From a virus, in the IMG/VR virus record IMGVR_UViG_3300025132_000021, positions 32,001 through 96,000 of that record: DNA of 64,000 nucleotides; one strand, given 5' to 3'. The translations under genes and the position numbers were made by a program. The notes beneath the pieces are model-generated. The model was not told the DNA's origin and ran no database searches. It saw nothing but the letters and a program-made list of their open reading frames with translations. Shown one piece after another: positions 6,653 through 53,373 of this stretch; position 1 is the stretch's first letter, and the number at the start of each line of letters is the position of its first letter.

Positions 6653-8365
6653 ATGAACAAAGAAAATAAACTAAAGAAGACATTTTTAACGATTTTAACA
6701 GCAATTATGCTTGCTATGAGTGCAGGTGTAGTTACTGGTGAAGGTTCCGACCCTCTTGACCCATCAGACGGTGGCGCAGATTGGGATGGCGACGGTTTGA
6801 CTAACAAAGAAGAACAAGACGCTGGAACTAATATGAACAACCCAGATTCAGACGGTGATGGACTCCCAGATGGTTGGGAAGTTGCTAACGGCCTAAATCC
6901 AACTAACGGTGGCGATGCTAACGGCGACCCAGATGGAGATGGTCTAACCAACTCTCAAGAATATGCACAGGGAACTAACCCAAACAATGCCGATACTGAC
7001 GGCGATGGCAAACCTGATAACACAGATGCCTTCCCTAACGACCCTAACGATGGAGAATACTCCGACTCCGATGGAGATGGAATCCCAGACGCATACGACC
7101 CAGATTATCAAGAGTCCCAAGCGGGTTCTGGTAATGGAGGCACAGAAGGCGGTGGCGAGTCTGAAGACAATGGACAAGGCGAAGGCCAAGGTCAGGGTCA
7201 AGGACAGGGACAAGGACAAGGACAGGGGCAAGGCCAAGGCCAAGGTCAGGGTCAAGGTCAGGGTCAGGGTCAAGGACAGGGCCAAGGTCAAGGACAAGGA
7301 CAAGGGCAGGGCCAAGGACAAGGGCAAGGCCAAGGTCAAGGTCAAGGACAGGGACAGGGCCAAGGCCAAGGTCAGGGTCAAGGACAAGGCCAACAACAAG
7401 GTCAAGGTCAAAGTCAAGGACAAGGACAACAAGGACAACAAGGCCAGCAAGGAAACCAAGGACAACAAGGACAGGCTGGACAACAAGGCCAACAATCTGG
7501 ACAACAAGGTAACCAAGGTCAGCAAGGCCAACAAGGGCAACAAGGTCAGCAACAAGATAACGGGCAAGGCCAGCAACAACAAGGAGGTCAGCAAGGCGGT
7601 CAGCAATCTGAACAACAAGCAGAAGAACAGAACGGCCAAAACCAAAATGGTGCTAACCAACAACAGCAAGGTCAAACCCAGAATGGTCAGCAAGGCCAGC
7701 AAGGTCAGCAAAATGACCAGCAACAAGGCCAACAGTTGGATAATCAAGACCAAAATGGAGATAACGACAATGATGGCGACGGTATTCCTGATGACTTAGA
7801 CAATGATGATGATAACGATGGAATCCCAGATACTATGGATGATTCACCTCAAGACCATGATAACGACGGCATTGATGATGCTGAAGATAATGATGATGAC
7901 GGAGATGGAATCAACGATAATGAAGAAGTCAATGATGGCAACGACAACACAGATATTTATGACCACGACAATGACGGTATAGAAGACCGTTTTGACTTTG
8001 ACATTGATAATGACGGAATTGACAACTGGAATGACCTGTATGAAAACGGGTCAGATGCCAGCCGAGACCACGACAATGATGGTATGGACGATGGTGTAGA
8101 CACAGACGACGATAACGACAACATTCTTGATGTTGATGAAATCGGCGGTGCTTGGTCTTCCTATCGCTACGACCATGATAACGACAACATTTGGGATGCA
8201 ACAGACCTTGATGATGATAACGATGGTCTATCAGACTGGTTTGAGAACAATGATGGCAACGATATGACAGGTCAATTTGACCATGACAACGATGGCGTTA
8301 GTGATTACTTAGACCTTGACGATGATGGCGACGGTATTCTGGACGAGTTTGAAAACGGCGTTTGA
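6653..8365 (+). CDS. Secreted/surface acidic protein with thrombospondin type-3-like DxDxDG calcium-binding repeats and a Gly-Gln linker
   Basis: N-terminal hydrophobic signal, many DxDGDG and DHDNDG repeats on both sides of (GQ)n. Confidence 0.85.
   Translation: MNKENKLKKTFLTILTAIMLAMSAGVVTGEGSDPLDPSDGGADWDGDGLTNKEEQDAGTNMNNPDSDGDGLPDGWEVANGLNPTNGGDANGDPDGDGLTNSQEYAQGTNPNNADTDGDGKPDNTDAFPNDPNDGEYSDSDGDGIPDAYDPDYQESQAGSGNGGTEGGGESEDNGQGEGQGQGQGQGQGQGQGQGQGQGQGQGQGQGQGQGQGQGQGQGQGQGQGQGQGQGQGQGQGQGQGQGQGQGQQQGQGQSQGQGQQGQQGQQGNQGQQGQAGQQGQQSGQQGNQGQQGQQGQQGQQQDNGQGQQQQGGQQGGQQSEQQAEEQNGQNQNGANQQQQGQTQNGQQGQQGQQNDQQQGQQLDNQDQNGDNDNDGDGIPDDLDNDDDNDGIPDTMDDSPQDHDNDGIDDAEDNDDDGDGINDNEEVNDGNDNTDIYDHDNDGIEDRFDFDIDNDGIDNWNDLYENGSDASRDHDNDGMDDGVDTDDDNDNILDVDEIGGAWSSYRYDHDNDNIWDATDLDDDNDGLSDWFENNDGNDMTGQFDHDNDGVSDYLDLDDDGDGILDEFENGV
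7172..7735 (+). repeat. Coding low-complexity repeat: (GGN CAR)n Gly-Gln run followed by a G/Q-rich tract
   Basis: Over 30 consecutive GQ dipeptides with mixed synonymous codons. Confidence 0.95.
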
Positions 8366-21133: not shown

Positions 21134-23230
21134 ATGGTTCGTGTTAGCGACACAGCAGTAGATTACATCTTGGCATATTTCTGGCTACAAGGTGGCAAAG
21201 CAGGCAGGATTCGTAAAATTGGTCCAGATATGGCTGATTACTTGATTTCTAAAGGACACACATTTTCCCCTCGTGCAGAAAAGAAACTACGCACAGTTCC
21301 TTCTGCTTCTTTTTCTACTTCAGTATCTACTCCATGGACCAGCAACGCTGGTTGGATTGCTGCGACTTTCGGAGAATCCGCTTACAACATTGACGCATAC
21401 TATACTCGTAACCTACCCACAGGCCGTAGTATTGAATTAGGCACAGACCCTATGGGAAGCCCCGGTGGTGGAAAGGGTCGTGCTTGGAAAGCACAATCCT
21501 TTAATCAAACTGGTTGGGATGTTATCAACATTGAATCTATTGTAAATACTAATAAACCAGACCCTCGGTGGATTGCACTTTTGAACAATGTAGCCGTTTC
21601 TGGTGGTGCAAGTTTTACTGCTGATTTCCCAGTAACTAATCCTCGCTACGAAATTGGAAGTGGACTCATGCGCTATGCAGGAACACCACCAGCAATTTCT
21701 GGCGCACCGACTCCAACCACAGGTGCAACACCTCCTCCTCCACCAACACCTGCTGTTGAACCAGTAGTAGAACCAGAACCAGTAGTAGAAACAGTTGATG
21801 TAAGTTTTGATGATTTCAAAGACAATCTTTCTCTTGATGATTTGTCTGTCTTTGTTGTCAATGGGGCAAGCACTCCAACTATTAAGCCTTCAGACCGAAA
21901 GATTTCTTCTAAAGCCTTTGTTGCCAACGCAGGAAAGTTTTCAGTAGAGTCTGGACAGATTTCTATTACTATGAGAACACCAGATGCAGCCAAATTATCC
22001 AATGATTTAGAAGTGGCTTGGATTACTGGTGAACAAGACCCGTCAAAACTTGTTGATATGGAAGGAGATATGGTCACTATTACGGACGAAGAAGGTGAAG
22101 AATATGAAGTTCCAGCACCACCAAAGGTAAAGTTTATTGTTGATTGCGATGAAAAGAAAGTTTTCATTAGTGTTAATGGAGAAATGATTCAAGCCATCAA
22201 AGATGAGTCTGAATATGCTTTTGCTAAGTGTGAAATAACCGTAGAAGAACCCGCTAAAGGCGGTAAGATTACTTCATTATTCCTTGATGGAAGCCCTATT
22301 GAGTTCGGTAAAAAGACAGGGGCTATTTATGATTATGGATTCCCTATTCGTGGAGTCATGGGACTTCCTGAAAATTGTTATGCTGATGCTTATGATGCAG
22401 GAGAAGTTACCGCAGGAAAAGACCCAACAACTCAAATGTTCGCAGCCCGTGGAAAGTTTTATGCACTGGGCGGTCGTTTAATTCAATTTGGAACTCCTCA
22501 ATCTTACACTTATGATATGAGCCAAATGGACGAAAAGGTTCTTCAACCATTAGCACTTAACTTTGATACAGAACTGGATTTAGATAAGCAAGGAATCTTC
22601 TTTACCTTGTTATACCAGAACGCACTTACTGATGGCTCAAATCTTTTCCCCGGTTTTGACATCAACTCTACCGTAGATGCTAACATGGAAAATCTTTTAT
22701 TCCCTAATGATGTTCGTAATCTTCGTCCTAAGACAGAAGATAACAAGGTCATGCTACAAAAAGCAGGTGCTATACGCCGAGCAGGAGAAGGTATTGAAAA
22801 GATTGAGATTGATAGCAGCAATCTTCAAAGCACAGGTGAATTAGAAATCGGAGGTAAAACTTACACAACTGAAGTTTATTCTCAAGTTCAAGTAACTTTT
22901 GATGGAGGAGATACTATGTTGATTCCAGATGGAGATGACCGTTTCCGTGCTATTGACAATTCTGACTCCGAAATTATGGGAACAATTAGTGTAGATGAAA
23001 GCACAGAACGCCCACAAATACAGATTGTTTCAGGAGATTTAGATGATATTTATGAATCATTAGAAGCCTCTCGTCGTTCCAACCGTTTGTCCAAGAGATT
23101 TAATCGTGAAAGCAAAGGAGAAATTGTTAGCCAAACAGGTATGGTAAAGCAAGGAGATTCCTACTACATTATTATGGGTGTTGGTTCACAAACAGTAGTT
23201 GTTGAATTAGATATGGAACAAAAGGTGTGA
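21134..23230 (+). CDS. Large hypothetical protein with Pro-rich linker, first gene of the MoxR cluster; start revised to ATG 21134
   Basis: Promoter at 21104; PTPTTGATPPPPPTP linker; overlaps the next gene. Confidence 0.8.
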   Translation: MVRVSDTAVDYILAYFWLQGGKAGRIRKIGPDMADYLISKGHTFSPRAEKKLRTVPSASFSTSVSTPWTSNAGWIAATFGESAYNIDAYYTRNLPTGRSIELGTDPMGSPGGGKGRAWKAQSFNQTGWDVINIESIVNTNKPDPRWIALLNNVAVSGGASFTADFPVTNPRYEIGSGLMRYAGTPPAISGAPTPTTGATPPPPPTPAVEPVVEPEPVVETVDVSFDDFKDNLSLDDLSVFVVNGASTPTIKPSDRKISSKAFVANAGKFSVESGQISITMRTPDAAKLSNDLEVAWITGEQDPSKLVDMEGDMVTITDEEGEEYEVPAPPKVKFIVDCDEKKVFISVNGEMIQAIKDESEYAFAKCEITVEEPAKGGKITSLFLDGSPIEFGKKTGAIYDYGFPIRGVMGLPENCYADAYDAGEVTAGKDPTTQMFAARGKFYALGGRLIQFGTPQSYTYDMSQMDEKVLQPLALNFDTELDLDKQGIFFTLLYQNALTDGSNLFPGFDINSTVDANMENLLFPNDVRNLRPKTEDNKVMLQKAGAIRRAGEGIEKIEIDSSNLQSTGELEIGGKTYTTEVYSQVQVTFDGGDTMLIPDGDDRFRAIDNSDSEIMGTISVDESTERPQIQIVSGDLDDIYESLEASRRSNRLSKRFNRESKGEIVSQTGMVKQGDSYYIIMGVGSQTVVVELDMEQKV

Positions 23231-26200
23231 TTAGAATGGTAGATGAAGTAGAAGATATGGGACTAACTGTTCCAGAAGATGTTGAAGAAGTAATGGAAAC
23301 TTTAATTGAAGAAGTCGTTGAACCCACACCAGTTGAGCCAAAACTTTCAGGTTCAATCAAAGAACAACTCACTGCATTAGTTGGCGAAGATGGTGTTAGC
23401 ACTTTAGAAGAAGTTGCTAAATCTACTTACAAAGATTTAGATGAGTTCGCTAAGATTACAGTTATTGATACTGCTCTTGATTCTTTAGAGATTTTTACTG
23501 GTAAGAATCGTAGTCCTTTGAACATGGTTGCTTTGGATGCTGATGGAAACACTATTGACTTAGATGATGCAGGTATGGAACTTGCTGACAAAGGCTACGA
23601 AGGTTTCTCTTTAGATTCAGTCTTTGAGACCACCGTTTTTGAACCCGGATTTAGCCCAGAAAATATGGGAACTGCTCTCAAAGAAGTATTCCGTGCAAAA
23701 CTTACTTTAGGAGATTGGGAAGCCAAGCAAAAAACTCACACTGAACTACTTGACCCAGTGCGTAAGGCTATGACTCAACTCGGAGAAGTTTTCGGTTTTG
23801 ATAACTATGAACACTTAGAAATGTTCTTTGCAGCATGGTTGATGAAAGATTCTACTTGCCGTTTGTCTGGTATTCCCGGAACTGGTAAGACCACGGTTAT
23901 TGAATCAGCAGCAGTTCTGTTGTGCAATTCTTATGGATTCAACAAACAATCTCGTTTCGTTGCCCCAATCCGTGCTGACCCATATACTATGGAAGAATTA
24001 TTCGGAGAGAATCGTTCCTATGTGGCTCAAGAATACCCATCAGGTATGGAATATAACCTAACTTACTCAAACTCTGCTTATGAAACAGTTCGCAACGATT
24101 GGGACGAATGGCGTTTCACCAGTTGGTCTCGTCCCGGTGGTCGCAACCGTTCAGGTGCTTATCTTTATGATATGTCATTCTTGCACCCATCAGGTAAGCG
24201 TGATGGAGAACCATTCCAGAAAAAAGCCTTGGAAATTGGAAACTTTTACAAGTTGTTGAACAATTGTTATGTCGTTCAGGCTCCAGTTCAAGGATTTACT
24301 GACCCATCAGAAGGAAAGTCAGAAGGTAAAGAACTTTTGAAACAATTAGAGGAAGACCAAATCCAAACCGTAGTAGCACCTATCAAGTTGCTTAACGCTG
24401 ATGGAACTTTGGCTGATTTTGGAACACCATTGGTGTATGATGTTTATGATGTCCGAGGCAACAAGCATCAATTCCCAATGCAAGTCCGTTTCCCAGATGT
24501 AAATATGGCGGCTGAAACTGAAAACACTCAAAATTACAAGTGGATTTTAGAACAAGGAGATGCTACCGAGTTTATTCAAGATGGATACGGTTTGTTCACT
24601 GATGCTGGCCGTTCCGAAGGATACGGATTCCGTCAATATCTTATTGAAAACTTTGTAGACTTGCGAAGCAAAGATGCTCGTATTTCAGGAAAGTGGAAGC
24701 CAATTCTTGAAGAAATGCTTGAAGAAATTGGTGTGGCAAAGATTGACTACGAAAAGCGTGCTGATGAAGTATTGTATGGTATTGAGATTCAACAATCCAC
24801 TGTCACTGATAAAATCCGTGATGCTCAGATTTCAACTTATGAGTTTGAACCAGTGCCTCGTCCAATTGTTACTCAACCTATCAAGTTCTTTAACGAAGCC
24901 AACCGTTCACAGGCTGGTGTAGAAGACGCAGTTCTGGGTCTAATTGCCGAGCGAAAGGTAGAATACCGTGGTAAATCTTTTGATTCTCCAAACTTTGTTG
25001 CTTGGATGGACACTAACCCTCACCAAAAAGGAAACGACCTTGCGTTTATTGACCGTATTGATATGGAACTTTTGTTTAAGTCTATCTCTCTCGGTGAACG
25101 CTACTCACAATTGAGTGGTCGTTTCGGTGGTGGCGGTGGATTAGCCCCACAAGAACAAATTGTTTCTAAGTTAGCAGCAGGTGGCGACATTGGATTCACT
25201 GCTCTAAGATTCGGCAATCTTGCTAATCTGTGGCAATTCGTTCAGAAACAAGTTGGATTCGCACCACCGGGTCAGCAACCCGGGACCAGCACTTACGATG
25301 CTTTGCGTGAAATCTCTTATATTTCAGTTCTCTTCACCCAGCGTTTCCTTCCTCGCAACACCACCCTAAAGTCAGGAAATGAGACATTCAATGTAAGTGC
25401 TAAACAGGATTTCAATGAATCTCCGCTTATGGATTTCTCGGTGACTACTAATACTAACGAAGAAGGAAAGTCCAACATTAAACTTCAATCTGATATTAGA
25501 ACAACTTATTCCCAGCACACACCATCTAACATTGACCGTGTTCTTGGTTTCCGTTTCACTAACTCTTTGGTAAAACTTTCGTCAGCATTGGCCTTCCTTC
25601 GTGGAAAGTCTTATGTTACTCGTCAAGAAATCCTTGATGGGCTACCTTATGTGACTGCTCACCGATTAGGTCGTGCTAAATCCAGTAAAGGAGAAATCCA
25701 AGGTTTGCCAGCAGGTCTTCAGTTCAATAACGAACAAGAGTGGATTCGTGAAGCCATTGTTAATGGTTATCTACTTCAAGAAACCAACATTGGTTTCAGT
25801 CAAGGTGGATTACCACTTATGGACATTTGGGATTTGTATTACCGCCGATGTGTAGATGCACTTAAGAGCGCACCTGCACTCTTTTGGTATGAACAACAAG
25901 TGTTGATTCCATTACATAAAGCATTGATTGAAGCAGGCGCAGATGTGGGCAACAAGTTCACACCAGTTCACTGGCATATTGCTACTATGGTTGTTCAAAA
26001 CGAAAAGTCTGCAACTATGCAAAGTTTGACTAAGCCTTACCGAACCTACGCTCACGGTGATGATTACCAATCTAACTACAACCATTACCTAACTCGTGTT
26101 TTCAGCAATCCTAACCCTTCTAAGACTACGGCTGACCAATCATTATATGATTACTACCAACTTCGTGGTGAAATCTGTTCCGAACCTAACTTGTTCTCGG

Positions 26201-27204
26201 ACGACCGTGAAACTTTGTTAGAACTTTTGGCTTCTACTATGGATACCATTTCAGGCAAAGGCGCACCGGGCGGAAAAGGTTCAGGAGTTGCCAACCCAAC
26301 AGCGATTGTTGCTTCTAAGAAATTATCAGCCAAGACCCAAGCCAACGCACAACGCTATTCCGATACAACTTCATTCCAATGGAGAACCTATCAAGATTCC
26401 ATCGGAACATGGGGTCGTATGCTACAACTTGATGGAACAAGTGGTGTAGGAGGAGGCGCAACTGATGTTTTCACCGCATCCCAAACTTCTACGAGTCAAA
26501 AAGTTGCTGCTTCTTTTGCAGACCAAGCCCTAATGATTACAGGCCGTATGGAAGTCAAAGAACCCTCTAAGCGAGCCAGCGTTGCAGGTTCAGCCAGTTC
26601 CATGCAAAGAGACCAAATGATTACCCAACTCAACAAAGTTGAAATGGCATTTGCATCTTATCTGGGCGAAGGAGTTCGGATTCTAAGCGCAGCCGACGGC
26701 TCAACAGAAACCATGACATTTAATCAGTTAATGTCGGCTTGTCGTGAGTTTGTCACTCAATACCCTGCTCGTAAAGACATTACCACAGGGGCTTTTGAAG
26801 TTAATGGAATAGAAGTAGACCTACAAACAGAAGGTTTAATGGCTTGCTTCCCATTAGCCCACACAGCAGGTGCGCCTATGTCTACTGAATACACAGGTGA
26901 TGATTCTTTGCGTTTGTGGGTTCGTTTGTTTGAATCCAACCTAACTGGCAAAAAGGCAGCCACTCAATCAGGAGGTTCGGCTTTCGTAACTCTTAACTTT
27001 ACTATGGGTATCACTTCTAACTGGGCAACCAAGAAGGGAGATTTCCTTAATGTTGTTCCTTCAACAGATGATGACAAGAAAGCCTACATTATTGAAACTT
27101 ACAATGGTTCAGACCTACAAGACACAGGAAACTTGTCCAAGACTGACCTACTTAATTATCAATTCATGTTTGCAGAGTCTCTCAAAGAAGACACGGCTTA
27201 TTGA
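23227..27204 (+). CDS. Very large MoxR/dynein-related AAA+ ATPase with a long insertion
   Basis: Walker A GIPGTGKT; Walker B IKFFNEANR; TNP...AFIDRID; YVTAHRL lid motif. Confidence 0.85.
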   Translation: MIRMVDEVEDMGLTVPEDVEEVMETLIEEVVEPTPVEPKLSGSIKEQLTALVGEDGVSTLEEVAKSTYKDLDEFAKITVIDTALDSLEIFTGKNRSPLNMVALDADGNTIDLDDAGMELADKGYEGFSLDSVFETTVFEPGFSPENMGTALKEVFRAKLTLGDWEAKQKTHTELLDPVRKAMTQLGEVFGFDNYEHLEMFFAAWLMKDSTCRLSGIPGTGKTTVIESAAVLLCNSYGFNKQSRFVAPIRADPYTMEELFGENRSYVAQEYPSGMEYNLTYSNSAYETVRNDWDEWRFTSWSRPGGRNRSGAYLYDMSFLHPSGKRDGEPFQKKALEIGNFYKLLNNCYVVQAPVQGFTDPSEGKSEGKELLKQLEEDQIQTVVAPIKLLNADGTLADFGTPLVYDVYDVRGNKHQFPMQVRFPDVNMAAETENTQNYKWILEQGDATEFIQDGYGLFTDAGRSEGYGFRQYLIENFVDLRSKDARISGKWKPILEEMLEEIGVAKIDYEKRADEVLYGIEIQQSTVTDKIRDAQISTYEFEPVPRPIVTQPIKFFNEANRSQAGVEDAVLGLIAERKVEYRGKSFDSPNFVAWMDTNPHQKGNDLAFIDRIDMELLFKSISLGERYSQLSGRFGGGGGLAPQEQIVSKLAAGGDIGFTALRFGNLANLWQFVQKQVGFAPPGQQPGTSTYDALREISYISVLFTQRFLPRNTTLKSGNETFNVSAKQDFNESPLMDFSVTTNTNEEGKSNIKLQSDIRTTYSQHTPSNIDRVLGFRFTNSLVKLSSALAFLRGKSYVTRQEILDGLPYVTAHRLGRAKSSKGEIQGLPAGLQFNNEQEWIREAIVNGYLLQETNIGFSQGGLPLMDIWDLYYRRCVDALKSAPALFWYEQQVLIPLHKALIEAGADVGNKFTPVHWHIATMVVQNEKSATMQSLTKPYRTYAHGDDYQSNYNHYLTRVFSNPNPSKTTADQSLYDYYQLRGEICSEPNLFSDDRETLLELLASTMDTISGKGAPGGKGSGVANPTAIVASKKLSAKTQANAQRYSDTTSFQWRTYQDSIGTWGRMLQLDGTSGVGGGATDVFTASQTSTSQKVAASFADQALMITGRMEVKEPSKRASVAGSASSMQRDQMITQLNKVEMAFASYLGEGVRILSAADGSTETMTFNQLMSACREFVTQYPARKDITTGAFEVNGIEVDLQTEGLMACFPLAHTAGAPMSTEYTGDDSLRLWVRLFESNLTGKKAATQSGGSAFVTLNFTMGITSNWATKKGDFLNVVPSTDDDKKAYIIETYNGSDLQDTGNLSKTDLLNYQFMFAESLKEDTAY

Positions 27205-32729: not shown

Positions 32730-33914
32730 ATGGAGTCAGGTTCACCAATTACCAAAGCAGACCATGTTTGCCTCGGTCAGAAACTAACTTTTCCAGCGTA
32801 TGGAGAAGATTCTTTAATTTCTAATGTCCTGTTTATCACAGGCAAGCGAGGTTCAGGTAAATCTTGGACAGCAGGTGTAATGATGGAAGAGTTTCATAGA
32901 CTTGGATTACAATTTGTTTGTTTTGATGCTTTGAATGCTCACGGTGGCATTGATAGTCTGCCCAGAGTGGAATCATTGAAACCAGAAATCGGACAGTCTA
33001 TTGATATGAAATCTTTAGTAGACCGTTTGAAGACTACGGATAAAAGTTTAGTAATTGCTTTAGGAGGTTTGCCTCTGGTTAAGCAACAAGAACTTATCGG
33101 AGATTATTGCGAAGCCTTGATTGAGGCACGACTTGGTAAAGGCATACACACAGTTATTGAAGAATGTCAAGACTTTGTTCCTCAAATGGGCAGACCTATT
33201 TCTTTTGACCCAATCGTAAGACTCTGCAAACTTGGTCGTGCTTTAGGATATGGTGCGTCTTTGGTTTCCCAACGACCCGCAGGTGTGAACAAAGAAGCCC
33301 TTTCGCAAGCATCGGTATATTTAGTTCACAATGTCATTAACAACCGAGACTTGAAAACTTTGGACGAACAATTAAGTTTTGGAACAGACAAGCGATTGAT
33401 TAAGAAAATCTTGAATGGTATTGCTTCGGCTCGCAAAGGAGAGTGTGTTGCCTATGCCCCAGAGTTTTTCCGAGACCGAGGTTATCTGGTTATTGACAAA
33501 GTTCGTGGCGACCGTCAAGCCAAACACACAGGAAACAATGTAGATGTGCGAAGCACTTTGGGTGGAGTTAGCCATAGCGAAGATGAAGAAACAGAACCTT
33601 TTGAAGCCGTAACTTCAGCAGCAGAGTTAATGCCCTTTGCTCGTCAAAGTTCCTCAATAACACCTGCACCAACCCTCGCTAACGAAACATCGCCTTCGGC
33701 TCTCCCGCCGCTTTCCCAAGAGTTTAGAGGTATGGCTAAAGAATATGATGTTTGGGAGCCAAGTGTTGATGATTATGCAACCGAGTATGATACTGAACCA
33801 TTAGTAGAAAAGAAAGAATCTAAAAATACCAAGTGGATTCCTGTTGCTGCTGTGGGAGGAGTTAGCCTTACCGCAGGATTGTTAATGGTTGTTTTACAAG
33901 GTTTTAAGCGATAG
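32730..33914 (+). CDS. HerA/FtsK-superfamily ATPase, candidate genome-packaging ATPase, with C-terminal TM anchor
   Basis: GKRGSGKS, TVIEECQ, LGRALG (Arg finger), LVSQRP; tail VAAVGGVSLTAGLLMVVLQGFKR. Confidence 0.85.
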   Translation: MESGSPITKADHVCLGQKLTFPAYGEDSLISNVLFITGKRGSGKSWTAGVMMEEFHRLGLQFVCFDALNAHGGIDSLPRVESLKPEIGQSIDMKSLVDRLKTTDKSLVIALGGLPLVKQQELIGDYCEALIEARLGKGIHTVIEECQDFVPQMGRPISFDPIVRLCKLGRALGYGASLVSQRPAGVNKEALSQASVYLVHNVINNRDLKTLDEQLSFGTDKRLIKKILNGIASARKGECVAYAPEFFRDRGYLVIDKVRGDRQAKHTGNNVDVRSTLGGVSHSEDEETEPFEAVTSAAELMPFARQSSSITPAPTLANETSPSALPPLSQEFRGMAKEYDVWEPSVDDYATEYDTEPLVEKKESKNTKWIPVAAVGGVSLTAGLLMVVLQGFKR

Positions 33915-45493: not shown

Positions 45494-46297
45494 ATGAATC
45501 TTGACCTTGCTATTCAAAATGTTTTGAAGCGCAGTGAGATGGAGAACGCTATGCACGGCGTTATGTCCAACTTCGGCGGAACTTATCAACTTACTTCCTA
45601 CACCGAATCAGCCAAAGCAGCAGAAGATATTTTGGGAACTCCTGTGGCACACATGACTCCAAATGCTTTGAGCCGACCTACCTTGGTTCAACAGGCAGAA
45701 GTCTACGAAGCCAAGCCTCCTACTTCTAACATGAGTATGATGATTGATGGTTATGAAGTATCTTTTGACGCTCAAACTAAAAACTGGACTCTAAGCCAAG
45801 CAGGAAAGGCTGCTGGCTTCTGGGACAAACTTTTGGGTCGTGAGCCACAACCTACTATTATGGTTACTAAGTATGGAACTAATTCTACTAACCGATTCCT
45901 AAGTGCTGTGGAAAACTCTTCTATCAGCGCATCTACTAAAAATAAGATTGCAGGTTATGTTATGACCTCAATGCGTAGTGGTTCAGTTGAAACTTTTCAA
46001 CAAGGTTATTCAGTAGATACTAAACCTTCAGACGATGTGATTACTTCTTCATCATCTTCTCGCATTATGGAAGCCCCAACTCGTGAATATCATTCTCAAG
46101 AACTTAACCTTGCTTCCGAATATCAAGGAGTTGCCAAACAACGAAACAATACTTTCATGGGCGACACAGTTATTCCACAACCCTTGAGTTCTGCTCAAGT
46201 TGGTATGCTAAGAACACCACTCGGAGACCCAGTTGGACTTCATGTATCTCCGCCAACCCGCCACATGGGTAATGTAAAAACAAACCGAAGTCTTTAA
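45494..46297 (+). CDS. Hypothetical protein
   Basis: Promoter at 45464. Confidence 0.75.
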   Translation: MNLDLAIQNVLKRSEMENAMHGVMSNFGGTYQLTSYTESAKAAEDILGTPVAHMTPNALSRPTLVQQAEVYEAKPPTSNMSMMIDGYEVSFDAQTKNWTLSQAGKAAGFWDKLLGREPQPTIMVTKYGTNSTNRFLSAVENSSISASTKNKIAGYVMTSMRSGSVETFQQGYSVDTKPSDDVITSSSSSRIMEAPTREYHSQELNLASEYQGVAKQRNNTFMGDTVIPQPLSSAQVGMLRTPLGDPVGLHVSPPTRHMGNVKTNRSL

Positions 46298-47637: not shown

Positions 47638-48177
47638 ATGAACATTAAAGGAATGCTAATTAACAAATACACAGTCGGCGGTAGCCTTCTGTTAGTCGGT
47701 GCTGGATTCTTCAGCACTCGTTTTACTGACGCTCTATCTTACCAACTCTTTACCTTGCCATCGGGAATCCCAATGATTGGCGGTGCATCCGTCACTGTTG
47801 GCCGTGTCGCAGGTTTAGTCCCACTAAGTCTCGGAATCGCTTTCCTACTAAGTGAAGCACGACCTATCACCAGTCGTATTCCAGTAGTAGACCGTGTAGC
47901 CGCAATTGCAGACAACCTCGTTAGCGAGATTTCTGAACCAGTTTCCACTGAAGCCTCCACCATGGGCGCAGAAGAACTTGAAGCAGAAACCGTAGACCAC
48001 ATCAACCCTACTGAAGTTGCAGAAGACTCCGAAACAGAATCTTTTGAAGCAGAAGGTGGAAAGATGAAGTGGACTGATGCAGTTTCTAAGGCTCGCAAAG
48101 ACCTCGGAATTACTGGATTTACCCCTGTTAAGAAGGGAACTCCTCTTTACAACAAAGCCAAGTCATACACTGCTTGA
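47638..48177 (+). CDS. 2-TM protein with a basic C-terminal module after FEAE
   Basis: ...ESFEAE|GGKMKWTDAVSKARKDLGITGFTPVKKGTPLYNKAK. Confidence 0.8.
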   Translation: MNIKGMLINKYTVGGSLLLVGAGFFSTRFTDALSYQLFTLPSGIPMIGGASVTVGRVAGLVPLSLGIAFLLSEARPITSRIPVVDRVAAIADNLVSEISEPVSTEASTMGAEELEAETVDHINPTEVAEDSETESFEAEGGKMKWTDAVSKARKDLGITGFTPVKKGTPLYNKAKSYTA

Positions 48178-48311: not shown

Positions 48312-48385
48312 GGGGTCGTAGTTTAATTTGGAAGAACAACTCGTTTGCGACGAGTAGGCTGGGAGTTCAAATCTCCCCGACTCCA
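48312..48385 (+). tRNA. tRNA-Ala(UGC), CCA not encoded
   Basis: Acceptor GGGGTCG/CGACTCC with G3:U70; anticodon arm ACTCG-TTTGCGA-CGAGT; T arm GGGAG-TTCAAAT-CTCCC. Confidence 0.95.
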
Positions 48386-48424: not shown

Positions 48425-48505
48425 ATGTATGACCCAGAGAATGACCAGTTCGGAGAAATTGGTGCTTTGTTTTTACTCTTTCTTATTATGGTGACCTTAC
48501 TATGA
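48425..48505 (+). CDS. 26-aa membrane micro-protein, not in ORF track
   Basis: MYDPENDQFGEIGALFLLFLIMVTLL*; ATGA overlap with the next gene. Confidence 0.45.
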   Translation: MYDPENDQFGEIGALFLLFLIMVTLL

Positions 48506-49392
48506 AATCAATTAGTTTGCATTGTTTTTTGGGTGAAAAACTCTACAAAGCAGAGGAAAAAGGCAACTTTGGTGATGAGATTTCCCCTATTATTGTGCAA
48601 AATCTTATAGGTTCTGACTATGATTTGAGATATAATGATGACAATTGTGATGAAAGATTGCTGGCAATAGGGTCATTATTGCATGATGCCCAACCAAATG
48701 ATTACATCTTTGGCACAGGTTTCGGTCTTGAAGATAACGATAAACTTTCAGAACTAAATGTTTGCGCTGTCCGAGGACCATTGTCTCGTGAAAAGTTATT
48801 AGAAATCGGTGTGGATTGTCCAGAAGTTTATGGAGATGCGGCTTTACTTTTACCTGATTATTATGAACCTAACTATCTTCCAAACTTAGAGGGAAAAATT
48901 GGTGTTGTCCCACATTGGACGACCTACCCACATTATGAGAAACTTTTAGCCAACTCTAAACAATTCTATTTTATCAACCCAACTAATTCATGGCAACAAG
49001 TTATTGATGAAATCTATTCTTGCGATAAAATCGTATCTCAAGCATTACATGGTTTGATTTGTGCTGACGCTTACCAAACTCCTAATGTTTGGTTAGAGGA
49101 AAATATCTGGGCTTGTGTTTGTGGCAAACTTAGTGTAGATTCAGTCCTTAATCCTATTGAACCTCAACCACCTTGCTCATGCGGGTGGAACTACCATTCC
49201 ATAGGTAAAAATCTACCATTCCATAATGGAAACTTTAAGTTTTTAGATTACTTAGCCAGTCAAAACCGAGAAGTATCTCCTATTTCCCACCTACGGGAAG
49301 CCATCGGTGCAGATTACTATGAAGATGGAAACCAAATAGACTTAGAATTATTAAGAAACTCCTTTCCATTTGGTCAAAATACAAACCTTTAA
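48502..49392 (+). CDS. Polysaccharide pyruvyltransferase family protein
   Basis: GNFGD, AIGSLL, AVRGPLSR, YGDAALL, VVPH, SQALHGLICADAY. Confidence 0.88.
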   Translation: MKSISLHCFLGEKLYKAEEKGNFGDEISPIIVQNLIGSDYDLRYNDDNCDERLLAIGSLLHDAQPNDYIFGTGFGLEDNDKLSELNVCAVRGPLSREKLLEIGVDCPEVYGDAALLLPDYYEPNYLPNLEGKIGVVPHWTTYPHYEKLLANSKQFYFINPTNSWQQVIDEIYSCDKIVSQALHGLICADAYQTPNVWLEENIWACVCGKLSVDSVLNPIEPQPPCSCGWNYHSIGKNLPFHNGNFKFLDYLASQNREVSPISHLREAIGADYYEDGNQIDLELLRNSFPFGQNTNL

Positions 49393-49397
49393 GTAGT
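49388..49397 (+). promoter_or_regulatory. Promoter of the putative capsid operon
   Basis: TTTAAGTAGT overlapping the upstream stop; ATG of a 7-codon uORF 30 nt downstream. Confidence 0.75.
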
Positions 49398-49441: not shown

Positions 49442-49468
49442 AACCAAAAAAAATGGAGAATGAAAAAT

Positions 49469-50161
49469 ATGAGTATGAGAAGCCAAGTATATGAATGGTC
49501 AAACCTCGCACCATCTGGACAAGAGTTCACTCTACGAAGAACAACTGCTGACTTGCCAAAGGCATTGACAGCAAATCGTGAGTATGACTTGTTTATTGGA
49601 GGCGTTGGATTGAACATTACCAAGCCAGCAGAAACGACCGCAACACAGTTTATTGTGATTGAAGATATTGCGTGCAGCCCAACCCTAAACGGTGCTGTCC
49701 AAATCCGAATCAACACAACTGACTACTTCCAGAACCCTGATGTTACCGATATGGTCGGTATCCCGGGACTGGCAAGCCCTTACCCTCGTGGCGCACCAGC
49801 AACAGTCAATTTGGCTGCTGCAACTGTCGGCGCAGGAATCGTAGATTCAGACAACATCCTAAAGTCTTTTGACCTTTACCCAGATGTTTATGTCCTACCG
49901 GGTCAGACTTTCCAGATTCTTTACACACCTCTTGAATCCAGTCTTGTTGGTGGCGCAGGTTCAACTGCGGTAGTCTCTGCATTCATCAAATACACACTAT
50001 ATGATGGACCAGACGCTCTTATTGCTAACAAACTTTTGGAACTTGGTGTCACCATCAACCCAAACAATGTTGATTGGTATAAGCGAAGTCTAATTGAACA
50101 ACAACAACGCTCTGCTGCTGCTTCTGCGGCTGCTATGGCTGCAACCAACGGAGGTGTCTGA
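49469..50161 (+). CDS. Putative major capsid protein 1 (single-jelly-roll type); start revised to ATG 49469
   Basis: About 230 aa, beta-strand pattern, tandem paralog, GGAGA RBS; fold is inferred. Confidence 0.6.
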   Translation: MSMRSQVYEWSNLAPSGQEFTLRRTTADLPKALTANREYDLFIGGVGLNITKPAETTATQFIVIEDIACSPTLNGAVQIRINTTDYFQNPDVTDMVGIPGLASPYPRGAPATVNLAAATVGAGIVDSDNILKSFDLYPDVYVLPGQTFQILYTPLESSLVGGAGSTAVVSAFIKYTLYDGPDALIANKLLELGVTINPNNVDWYKRSLIEQQQRSAAASAAAMAATNGGV

Positions 50162-50162
50162 A

Positions 50163-50849
50163 ATGAGTATGCGAAGTCAAGTATATGAATGGGACGCTGG
50201 CCGTGGAACTAACCAAGTTCAAGCAGCCGAAGCAGGACAAAGAATCAGTATTTTTATCGGCGGATTCGGTAACAACATTACCAAGCCTGCTGAAACCACT
50301 GCAACCGAGTTCGTTGTTATTGAAGATATTGCTGTAACCCCTACACTATCTATTGGTGTAGATGCAACAGCAGGTGCGGCTGTCACAGGTCTTGCTGATG
50401 GTTCAGTTCGTGGTCTACTTTACAACAGCGTTCAGGGTGTCGCAGGTCCTCGTGCCTACACTCAAGTTCGTATCAACACCACTGATTACTTCTTGAACCC
50501 TGACAATGTGCCAAACGACGGTATTCCGGGAACTGCTTCCCCATACCCACGAAGTATCAACTTCCAGCCTTCGTTCAACCTATACCCTGATGTATATGTT
50601 CTACCGGGTCAAGTTTGGGATGTTATCGTAACCTTCTACAACGCACTTGGTCTTGGAGATGCTGCTACTGGCGCACCTCTGGCTGGCACAACCAATGTTG
50701 TCGCTACTAACCAATTGCAGTGTTTCGTGAAATACACTCTGTATGACGGACCTGATGCACTCATCGCTAACAAGTTGTTGGAGATGGGTATTTCCATCAA
50801 CCCCGGAAATGTAGACTGGTATAAGCGAAGCCTTCTTGCTTCACAGTAA
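50163..50849 (+). CDS. Putative major capsid protein 2, paralog of the previous gene; start revised to ATG 50163
   Basis: Shares MSMRSQVYEW, NITKPAETTAT, RINTTDYF, LYPDVYVLPGQ, KYTLYDGPDALIANKLLE, NVDWYKRSL; GGAGGTG RBS. Confidence 0.6.
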   Translation: MSMRSQVYEWDAGRGTNQVQAAEAGQRISIFIGGFGNNITKPAETTATEFVVIEDIAVTPTLSIGVDATAGAAVTGLADGSVRGLLYNSVQGVAGPRAYTQVRINTTDYFLNPDNVPNDGIPGTASPYPRSINFQPSFNLYPDVYVLPGQVWDVIVTFYNALGLGDAATGAPLAGTTNVVATNQLQCFVKYTLYDGPDALIANKLLEMGISINPGNVDWYKRSLLASQ

Positions 50850-50870
50850 GTGTAGGACGCTGAAACCAAC

Positions 50871-50939
50871 GAGCCGTTAGGCTTGTGGCCGAGGTATTGC
50901 CGAAAGGCTACCAATGAAGCCACAGCCTGATGTGCGCTC
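50871..50939 (+). ncRNA. Structured RNA element with kink-turn and GAAA tetraloop, downstream of the capsid genes
   Basis: TGTGGC-C-GA-GGTA-TT-GCC-GAAA-GGC-TACC-AAT-GA-A-GCCACA plus outer helices. Confidence 0.7.
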
Positions 50940-50955
50940 TAAGGGAGTAGATGTC

Positions 50956-51174
50956 ATGCGTAGGCTGTTAAAGGATGTTATCGTTGTCGGCACAGCACTT
51001 TTTGTGTTAGGCACATGGATGACTTCGCACCACAGTCATAAGGTAATAACACAGGAACACCCTGAACATAAAGTTCGGGACTTCTTGATTTACACTTGTG
51101 TCGGTATTGCGTTAATCACCGTGGGCAGCAACATGATGACTGATGGGTTCGTTAGCAGACTCCGAGGAGATTAG
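50956..51174 (+). CDS. Small 2-TM membrane protein; start revised to ATG 50956
   Basis: GGGAG RBS; similar to the next gene (T.H, VG..L...GSN...G). Confidence 0.7.
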   Translation: MRRLLKDVIVVGTALFVLGTWMTSHHSHKVITQEHPEHKVRDFLIYTCVGIALITVGSNMMTDGFVSRLRGD

Positions 51175-51175
51175 T

Positions 51176-51376
51176 ATGACCGTCAAGAATAGTTCACTAT
51201 TGATTGGCGGTGTTATGTTTCTCACAGGGTTTGTTTTAACAACTTATCATGTGTCGTATCTGATGGACCCTCAACGAAGTGCGCTAAAACACCTCGTCTG
51301 GGCGATAGTAGGCGTAGGTTTGTTCCAAATTGGTTCAAACTTAACTGCCAGTGGAATCCATGATAAGTTGTCTTAG
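51176..51376 (+). CDS. Small 2-TM membrane protein, paralog of the previous gene; start revised to ATG 51176
   Basis: GAGGAG RBS; two hydrophobic helices. Confidence 0.7.
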   Translation: MTVKNSSLLIGGVMFLTGFVLTTYHVSYLMDPQRSALKHLVWAIVGVGLFQIGSNLTASGIHDKLS

Positions 51377-52485: not shown

Positions 52486-53373
52486 ATGTTTGATGTTATC
52501 GTCCCTACTTACAAAGTTTCTACCGAGTTCCTGAAACCTTGTTTAGACTCTATCTTGAATCAAAACTTTACAGATTGGCACTGTTGGATTGCAGATGGCA
52601 CACCCGAAGACGATGCTACTTACCAGCCCATGATGGACTTAATAGCAAACTATCCTGCGGATAGATTTACTTATCTGCGCCAATCGGGTCGTGGAGTTTC
52701 TCAAGCCCGAAACGAGGCTATTGCTCAAGGCACACAGCCCTTTATTGCTACTTTAGATGGTGATGATTTGTGGTATCCAGAACACTTAACTTGGATGGTA
52801 GAAGCGATTGAATCTACTACGGACGACCATGTTTTGTGGTGGGCAGGTGCAGATGCTCTCATAGAAATGATTTCAATGAAAACAGGAAACCATTATCAGA
52901 ACCGAGGCATTATTGGCTGGTTTGAAGATTACTCAAAGGTTCGTCCTGAAGATTTACATTTCTTTTTACGAGGCAACCCAGTTATTCCTTCCAACACAGT
53001 TTGTCGTCGTAATCGTTTTGAAACCGTTGGAGGCTACGATGAAGTCTTACAAATTGGAGAAGATACTGATTTATACACTCGTATGATTGCATGGGGTGAA
53101 CCCTACCGAGGCCATCAAATTGATGCTGTTTCAGGTTATCATGGTTGTGGACCACATCAAACTACTCAATTTGGTTCACAAAGTTCTGCGGCTCATGGTC
53201 GTAATGAAGACGAGTTAAAATCCGAGTTTATTAAACAGAAACTATACTGGTATGGCAAAAATAATGAAATGCCTGAATGTCCCGAAGGCGTAGACCCTGA
53301 TTATTGGTTCTGGTTAATAGATTCTGTGAACAACCGATTTAAGGATAACCTAATGTTTGAGATTCAGGGATAA
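52486..53373 (+). CDS. Glycosyltransferase family 2
   Basis: VIVPTY, GVSQARN, LDGDD, VGGYDE..GEDTDL. Confidence 0.92.
   Translation: MFDVIVPTYKVSTEFLKPCLDSILNQNFTDWHCWIADGTPEDDATYQPMMDLIANYPADRFTYLRQSGRGVSQARNEAIAQGTQPFIATLDGDDLWYPEHLTWMVEAIESTTDDHVLWWAGADALIEMISMKTGNHYQNRGIIGWFEDYSKVRPEDLHFFLRGNPVIPSNTVCRRNRFETVGGYDEVLQIGEDTDLYTRMIAWGEPYRGHQIDAVSGYHGCGPHQTTQFGSQSSAAHGRNEDELKSEFIKQKLYWYGKNNEMPECPEGVDPDYWFWLIDSVNNRFKDNLMFEIQG

Follow-up and report, generated by a model that had tools for sequence, protein, structure and literature searches.

Double-stranded DNA viruses with single jelly-roll capsids are known from a handful of salt-lake and hot-spring isolates with genomes of 16-31 kb, while in the double jelly-roll lineage genomes grew large and carry multiple capsid paralogs. 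Among the former, Halopanivirales (SH1, HHIV-2, HCIV-1 and P23-77; Helvetiavirae, now Singelaviria) have genomes of ~16-31 kb and combine two single jelly-roll capsid genes (VP4/VP7 in SH1 and HHIV-2, VP16/VP17 in P23-77) with a single jelly-roll penton protein and an ATPase of the FtsK/HerA superfamily. Their jelly rolls stand vertical to the capsid surface in pseudo-hexameric capsomers made of heterodimers, and their virions contain an internal lipid membrane. SPV1 (Portogloboviridae), whose capsid proteins VP4 and VP10 form hexamers and pentamers, respectively, has a 20-kb circular genome that lacks both a recognisable polymerase and a packaging ATPase (PMC8459092; PMC8812541). Here we describe a pair of adjacent genes, A and B, in IMG/VR virus record IMGVR_UViG_3300025132_000021. 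The stretch of DNA analysed (the window) is 64,000 nucleotides long and corresponds to bases 32001-96000 of this linear 160,342-bp record. With a probability of roughly 65%, A and B are the major capsid proteins of a tailless icosahedral marine archaeal virus.

The two genes lie in tandem:

49469-50161, + strand: gene A, candidate major capsid protein, 230 amino acids (aa) from the MSMRSQ start (the frame is likewise open from an alternative upstream ATG at 49460)
50163-50849, + strand: gene B, candidate second major capsid protein, 228 aa, paralog of A

Their products are 46% identical (BLASTP, E-value 8e-65), with near-identical stretches at the N terminus, in several core segments and over the final 45 residues, and with insertions that occupy different loops in A and B. 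Direct repeats of 74-93% identity at the DNA level are shared by both genes, which shows that they arose by tandem duplication. A first interpretation made from the letters of the window without database searches (the sequence-only reading) had described adjacent beta-rich paralogs of ~230 aa, and both the alignment and the mostly beta model of A (below) bear this out.

A gene-by-gene comparison with three IMG/VR relatives of 166, 150 and 123 kb identified 38 genes shared by all four genomes. Conservation is highest for A (80, 75 and 59% identity; 1.36 bits per residue), which outranks the transcription factor TFB and the large subunit of DNA polymerase D (PolD DP2); B ranks fifth. The A-B tandem is retained in the three related genomes. 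The A family comprises 270 representatives at 50% clustering, some of which reach 300-650 aa through insertions. A homologs derive from marine surveys, Tara Oceans among them, and the contigs that carry them reach 236 kb.

Structure models were built for A and for a second core protein of 319 aa, referred to below as penton-like. The AlphaFold2 model of A consists mainly of beta strands as far as residue 180, with two helices after that. By this model A is a single jelly-roll protein, as is B as its paralog; the fold is therefore the one that the sequence-only reading had proposed. The best structural match of A is an SPV1 capsid chain, three Z units ahead of the other matches (we presume which chains of 6oj0, SPV1 VP4 versus VP10, and of 6h82 are which). 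A search of BFVD with A returned generic small jelly rolls only, with SPV1 VP4 at rank 9, and language-model leads to the PM2 P2 and PRD1 P3 clusters scored 0.75-0.77, under the trust level. Two-chain prediction of A with B gave weak support for their association, with a score of 0.51 (best of three controls, 0.00), a level at which false passes outnumber true ones unless the two proteins were likely partners to begin with. At least 66% of contacts agreed in these runs, with a predicted local distance difference test (pLDDT) value of at least 80 for the partner. The pass mark was met by 58 of 80 solved complexes and 2 of 110 mismatched pairs; passes at or below 0.60 comprised seven of the 80 solved complexes and both of the passing mismatches.

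The two genes are not the whole family. The sequence-only reading had treated them as twins and, although the pair stands, a family-profile search recovered five members across the genome (A, B, C, D and E), the last of which is divided into two genes:

L003:3320-4024 and L003:4024-4791: genes C and D, 2.3 kb past the window end, 35-38% identical to A
10582-11082, + strand: N-terminal piece of E, 166 aa, covering profile positions 4-151 (hmmsearch E-value 2e-27)
11093-13948, + strand: second gene of E, 951 aa, residues 807-879 covering profile positions 157-216 (hmmsearch E-value 1.4e-13)

C, D and the first E gene belong to the shared core. Residues 807-879 of the second E gene correspond to the last strand and the C-terminal helices of the family, and ~800 residues intervene between the two family parts. 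The second gene has a separate start and its own GAGG site. E is also split in the 166-kb relative G001 (172 + 966 aa) and in G002 (175 + 977 aa), with differing overlaps between the open reading frames (ORFs), which indicates that the split is real and not a sequencing error. The second gene probably encodes a spike or tower protein, and the two E genes may perhaps complete one jelly roll in trans.

The penton-like protein was modelled as a single jelly roll, and its best structural match is the penton protein of an archaeal icosahedral virus. It had been a candidate for a hidden double jelly-roll capsid protein, which its predicted fold rules out. Its gene adjoins one for a protein of 1375 aa that weakly matches a tail fibre. 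The first 93 residues (L003:4827-5105) are disordered, with R10, K13, R14, Y16, R17 and K18 invariant in 48 relatives, and this N-terminal arm may contact DNA or the membrane under the vertex.

The sequence-only reading had also noted a HerA/FtsK ATPase, and profile searches agree with it:

32730-33914, + strand: compact FtsK/HerA-type ATPase, candidate genome-packaging ATPase

This protein matches PHROG 2666 (E-value 5e-13), NCBIfam HerA (E-value 1e-9) and HerA/DUF87 chains in the PDB (E-value 6.5e-7); its match to Pfam DUF87 (E-value 7e-4) is under the curated cut-off. The Walker A motif (GKRGSGKS) lies at residues 38-45 and the HerA-type core within the first 250 residues, followed by a low-complexity linker and a C-terminal hydrophobic (transmembrane) helix. 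It appears to be without the N-terminal barrel of cellular HerA, and in this it would resemble the compact packaging ATPases of membrane-containing viruses. The gene belongs to the core, which also includes an AAA ATPase, and is 55-72% identical across five related records. On these predictions the genome would have the complete set of genes for a tailless icosahedral jelly-roll virus: those for the shell, the penton, the fibre and the FtsK/HerA ATPase.

An internal membrane is probable, and the signs of it are indirect: the tail anchor of the candidate packaging ATPase, an ArsA/Get3-like ATPase, and the 18 of 71 window genes in which a crude hydropathy scan predicted at least one transmembrane segment. 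Ten of these 18 encode proteins under 200 aa, in agreement with the numerous small membrane proteins reported by the sequence-only reading. The ArsA/Get3-type ATPase (14473-15618; Pfam E-value 3.5e-61) is also a core gene; together with the tail-anchored packaging ATPase candidate it raises the possibility that the virus directs the insertion of membrane proteins of this tail-anchored type.

In such a virion, A and B would assemble, perhaps as heteromers, into hexamer-like capsomers, as do SPV1 VP4 or halopanivirus VP4/VP7. The penton-like protein would close the fivefold vertices and bear the fibre, C, D and E would occupy special positions or make spikes, and the ATPase would pump the genome through a vertex. 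The loop insertions would face outward as towers; they are not the same in A and B, and in relatives they can be hundreds of residues long.

A capsid role for A and B is deduced from their fold, conservation and genomic context, and several observations weigh against it. A is only 14% identical to the SPV1 chain, and no sequence-level tie of A or B to known capsid families was found in Pfam, PHROGs, NCBIfam or the PDB: neither protein matched Pfam, PHROGs or NCBIfam, the family profile had no meaningful match among PDB sequences, and tblastn with A against 50,697 phage records returned zero matches. The orientation of the jelly roll in a shell cannot be read from a monomer model. By effective number of codons neither A nor B stands out, the ATPase gene lies 16 kb away from the pair, and to our knowledge five paralogs exceed the number in any known single jelly-roll virus.

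We searched for a rival shell or a tailed-virus module across the 160-kb genome. No terminase, portal or capsid family from Pfam matched any ORF of at least 400 aa or most of those of 250-400 aa. A PHROG scan of the unannotated ORFs (the proteins of at least 400 aa outside it being PolD, PolX, MCM-like, ribonucleotide reductase, TSP3-repeat, XPD-like and GNAT) gave no terminase, portal or capsid match apart from the PHROG label of the ATPase. A six-frame search of the genome with the HK97 capsid profile PF05065 gave zero matches, and double jelly-roll profiles had no Pfam or PHROG match across the 160 kb. The 38-gene core contains no unexplained protein sized like a portal or terminase, and its sole other unexplained protein of capsid size is the penton-like one. 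The absence of a Caudoviricetes head-tail module thus holds at the profile level for the complete contig, extending what the sequence-only reading had said of HK97 capsid, terminase and portal genes in the window, where none matched in the ORFs tested.

These results bear on three other explanations. The strongest, which we nevertheless regard as unlikely, is that A and B are jelly-roll proteins abundant in the virion but with decoration, turret, cement or receptor-binding functions, and that the shell is made by an unannotated protein. Against this, A is the most conserved core protein whereas receptor binders tend to be the most variable proteins, the SPV1 capsid chain leads the other matches by three Z units, and the core offers only the penton-like protein as another unexplained candidate of capsid size. 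It appears improbable that the family is non-structural, for example binding carbohydrate or acting as a nucleoplasmin-like chaperone, or that the element is a linear plasmid-like replicon in place of a virus: two core proteins have a capsid protein and a penton protein of archaeal icosahedral viruses as their best matches, the family occurs alongside a fibre-like gene and an FtsK/HerA ATPase, and IMG/VR contains four such records (123-166 kb), of which two have terminal repeats. Least probable of all is a tailed virus (Caudoviricetes) with HK97 capsid, portal and terminase too diverged for recognition and with A and B as accessory head proteins, for which speak the automatic ESM Atlas labels that put family clusters under Uroviricota, the 'terminase large subunit' annotation of the ATPase's best PHROG and the similar genome sizes attained by tailed archaeal viruses, but against which stand the searches above and the facts that the PHROG match covers the HerA-type P-loop region and that NCBIfam and the PDB assign the protein to HerA.

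If A and B are major capsid proteins, the virus shares features with each of the described jelly-roll groups. Like SPV1 it has a VP4-like single jelly-roll protein. Unlike SPV1, the genome is linear, 160 kb long and bounded by inverted repeats, it encodes its own PolD replisome and an FtsK/HerA ATPase, and the resemblance at 14% identity lacks a sequence-level match. Like Halopanivirales, it has two single jelly-roll genes with a putative capsid role, a single jelly-roll penton protein and an FtsK/HerA-superfamily ATPase with a putative packaging role; in contrast to their genomes, this one has 160,342 bp and its relatives have 123-166 kb, and no specific similarity of A and B to halopanivirus capsid proteins was evident. 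With Bamfordvirae (PRD1, PM2, STIV and eukaryotic giant viruses) it shares a jelly-roll shell protein, a jelly-roll penton, a spike and the FtsK/HerA ATPase, but no double jelly-roll protein was found with Pfam or PHROG profiles, and A and the penton-like protein have one jelly roll each. Because of its genome size, its ATPase and polymerase, and because no specific similarity to halopanivirus capsid proteins was evident, we do not place the virus in Portogloboviridae or Halopanivirales but regard it as a separate variant of the single jelly-roll capsid kind. Of the sequence-only proposal, the idea of a large single jelly-roll virus is therefore supported, while membership of Halopanivirales is not shown.

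The A-B operon is delimited by the following elements:

49388-49395, + strand: TTTAAGTA, archaeal TATA-like promoter element serving the operon
49455-49459, + strand: GGAGA, Shine-Dalgarno-like site in the leader, ~9 nucleotides ahead of the ATG at 49469
50145-50151, + strand: GGAGGTG, Shine-Dalgarno site within the last codons of A, 11 nucleotides ahead of the start of B
50871-50939, + strand: stable hairpin directly 3' of B

The sequence-only reading had placed the pair behind a consensus promoter, and the 8-mer is indeed enriched: the window has 30 copies, every one of them on the + strand, where shuffled sequence would give 3.5 (for example, at 46293, 52455, 58704 and 62014). Genome-wide, 26 of 49 + strand copies lie exactly 30 nucleotides ahead of a start codon, and since most copies sit at this distance they are likely to be TATA-like promoters of leaderless mRNAs. 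At the A-B operon TTTAAGTA lies 81 nucleotides before the start of A (72 before the open ATG at 49460), so this transcript has a 5' leader, and the operon is one of few in the genome with a long leader and a Shine-Dalgarno site. Gene B has no copy of the element of its own, and the GGAGGTG inside A suggests translational coupling of B. The fold of 50847-50945 that contains the hairpin has a free energy of -38.8 kcal/mol (z -3.34; 0 of 200 shuffles equally stable), and the hairpin is possibly a transcript end or processing signal. The shared promoter, the GGAGGTG inside A and the hairpin after B indicate that the two genes form one bicistronic unit.

The surroundings of the operon include these genes:

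48502-49392, + strand: polysaccharide pyruvyl transferase directly upstream of A (Pfam PF04230, E-value 7e-13)
50914-51174 and 51143-51376, + strand: two small ORFs just 3' of B, both 68-71% identical in G001
52486-53373, + strand: family 2 glycosyltransferase downstream of the pair, a core gene (Pfam PF00535, E-value 1.3e-20)

Two glycan-modifying enzymes thus flank the candidate shell genes, and the pyruvyl transferase could possibly take part in glycan modification of virion proteins. The first of the two small ORFs has two transmembrane segments in the hydropathy scan; the second was unflagged and is hydrophobic by eye only.

The genome ends in perfect 99-bp inverted terminal repeats (bases 1-99 are the reverse complement of 160244-160342) and has a coding density of ~96%; that of G001 is likewise classed as having inverted terminal repeats. 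Genes informative of replication and host are:

L003:11627-15190 (genome 106627-110190), - strand: PolD large subunit DP2, three Pfam domains with E-values of 1e-83 to 1e-104
L002:4245-5585 (genome 19245-20588): DP1-like small subunit of PolD
123-2153 of the window: class II ribonucleotide reductase
48312-48385 of the window: one tRNA-Ala

Other replication and repair genes encode PolX, an MCM-like protein, an ATP-dependent ligase, an XPD-like helicase and a flap-nuclease-like protein, and TFB is also encoded (E-value 3e-45). The presence of both PolD subunits, TFB and the MCM-like protein indicates that the host is archaeal. The sequence-only reading had predicted a non-halophilic archaeal host and a virus encoding a ribonucleotide reductase and a tRNA; these genes and the marine sources agree with it on each count. 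PolD is described as exclusive to archaea (PMC10721889; PMC6741145), which makes a virus-borne PolD notable in itself. No description of a virus-encoded PolD, or of this virus group, was found in the literature searched, which covers few subscription journals. Contigs of relatives (L011, L012 and L013) occur in genome bins labelled Rickettsiales and Acidiferrobacteraceae, probably through mis-binning of viral contigs. The nearest non-viral-looking DP2 clusters are 53-64% identical and almost without organism names, with one labelled 'Thorarchaeota'; neither the bin labels nor the DP2 clusters assign a host lineage below archaea.

Some further genes have features of their own. The C terminus of a small membrane protein (48043-48177) has a weak match to DVNP, the dinoflagellate/viral nucleoproteins (Pfam E-value 0.003, under the cut-off), and a 904-aa protein elsewhere in the genome contains a DUF5872-like basic stretch. 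A 570-aa protein (6653-8365) carries bacterial thrombospondin type 3 repeats (Pfam E-value 6.7e-12), a calcium-binding surface motif. In scans of Pfam and PHROGs, the single match of a 1325-aa protein (23227-27204) was to an AAA-lid domain (Pfam E-value 5.5e-5).

We tentatively propose, at somewhat less than even odds, that these oceanic archaeal viruses of 120-240 kb form the first branch with large genomes in the single jelly-roll capsid lineage, with the closest structural relative of SPV1 VP4 yet, a capsid gene that was repeatedly duplicated, and an FtsK/HerA ATPase and a complete PolD replisome that were gained. If so, a tailless archaeal virus would equal the largest tailed ones in genome size, and the single jelly-roll capsid, so far found only in viruses of archaea and bacteria that are five to eight times smaller, could enclose 160 kb or more. 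It would also mean that an abundant virus group of the ocean has gone unrecognised, with 1669 protein clusters that include contigs in bacterial genome bins. In a published scheme, halopaniviruses derive from an SPV1-like ancestor via gene duplication and capture of an FtsK-like ATPase (PMC8812541); this becomes directly testable because the present genome has both a duplicated SPV1-like candidate capsid protein and such an ATPase. The group would then relate to Portogloboviridae and Halopanivirales as giant viruses do to the small viruses with double jelly-roll capsids, and a taxon at the level of order or class, or above, would be warranted.
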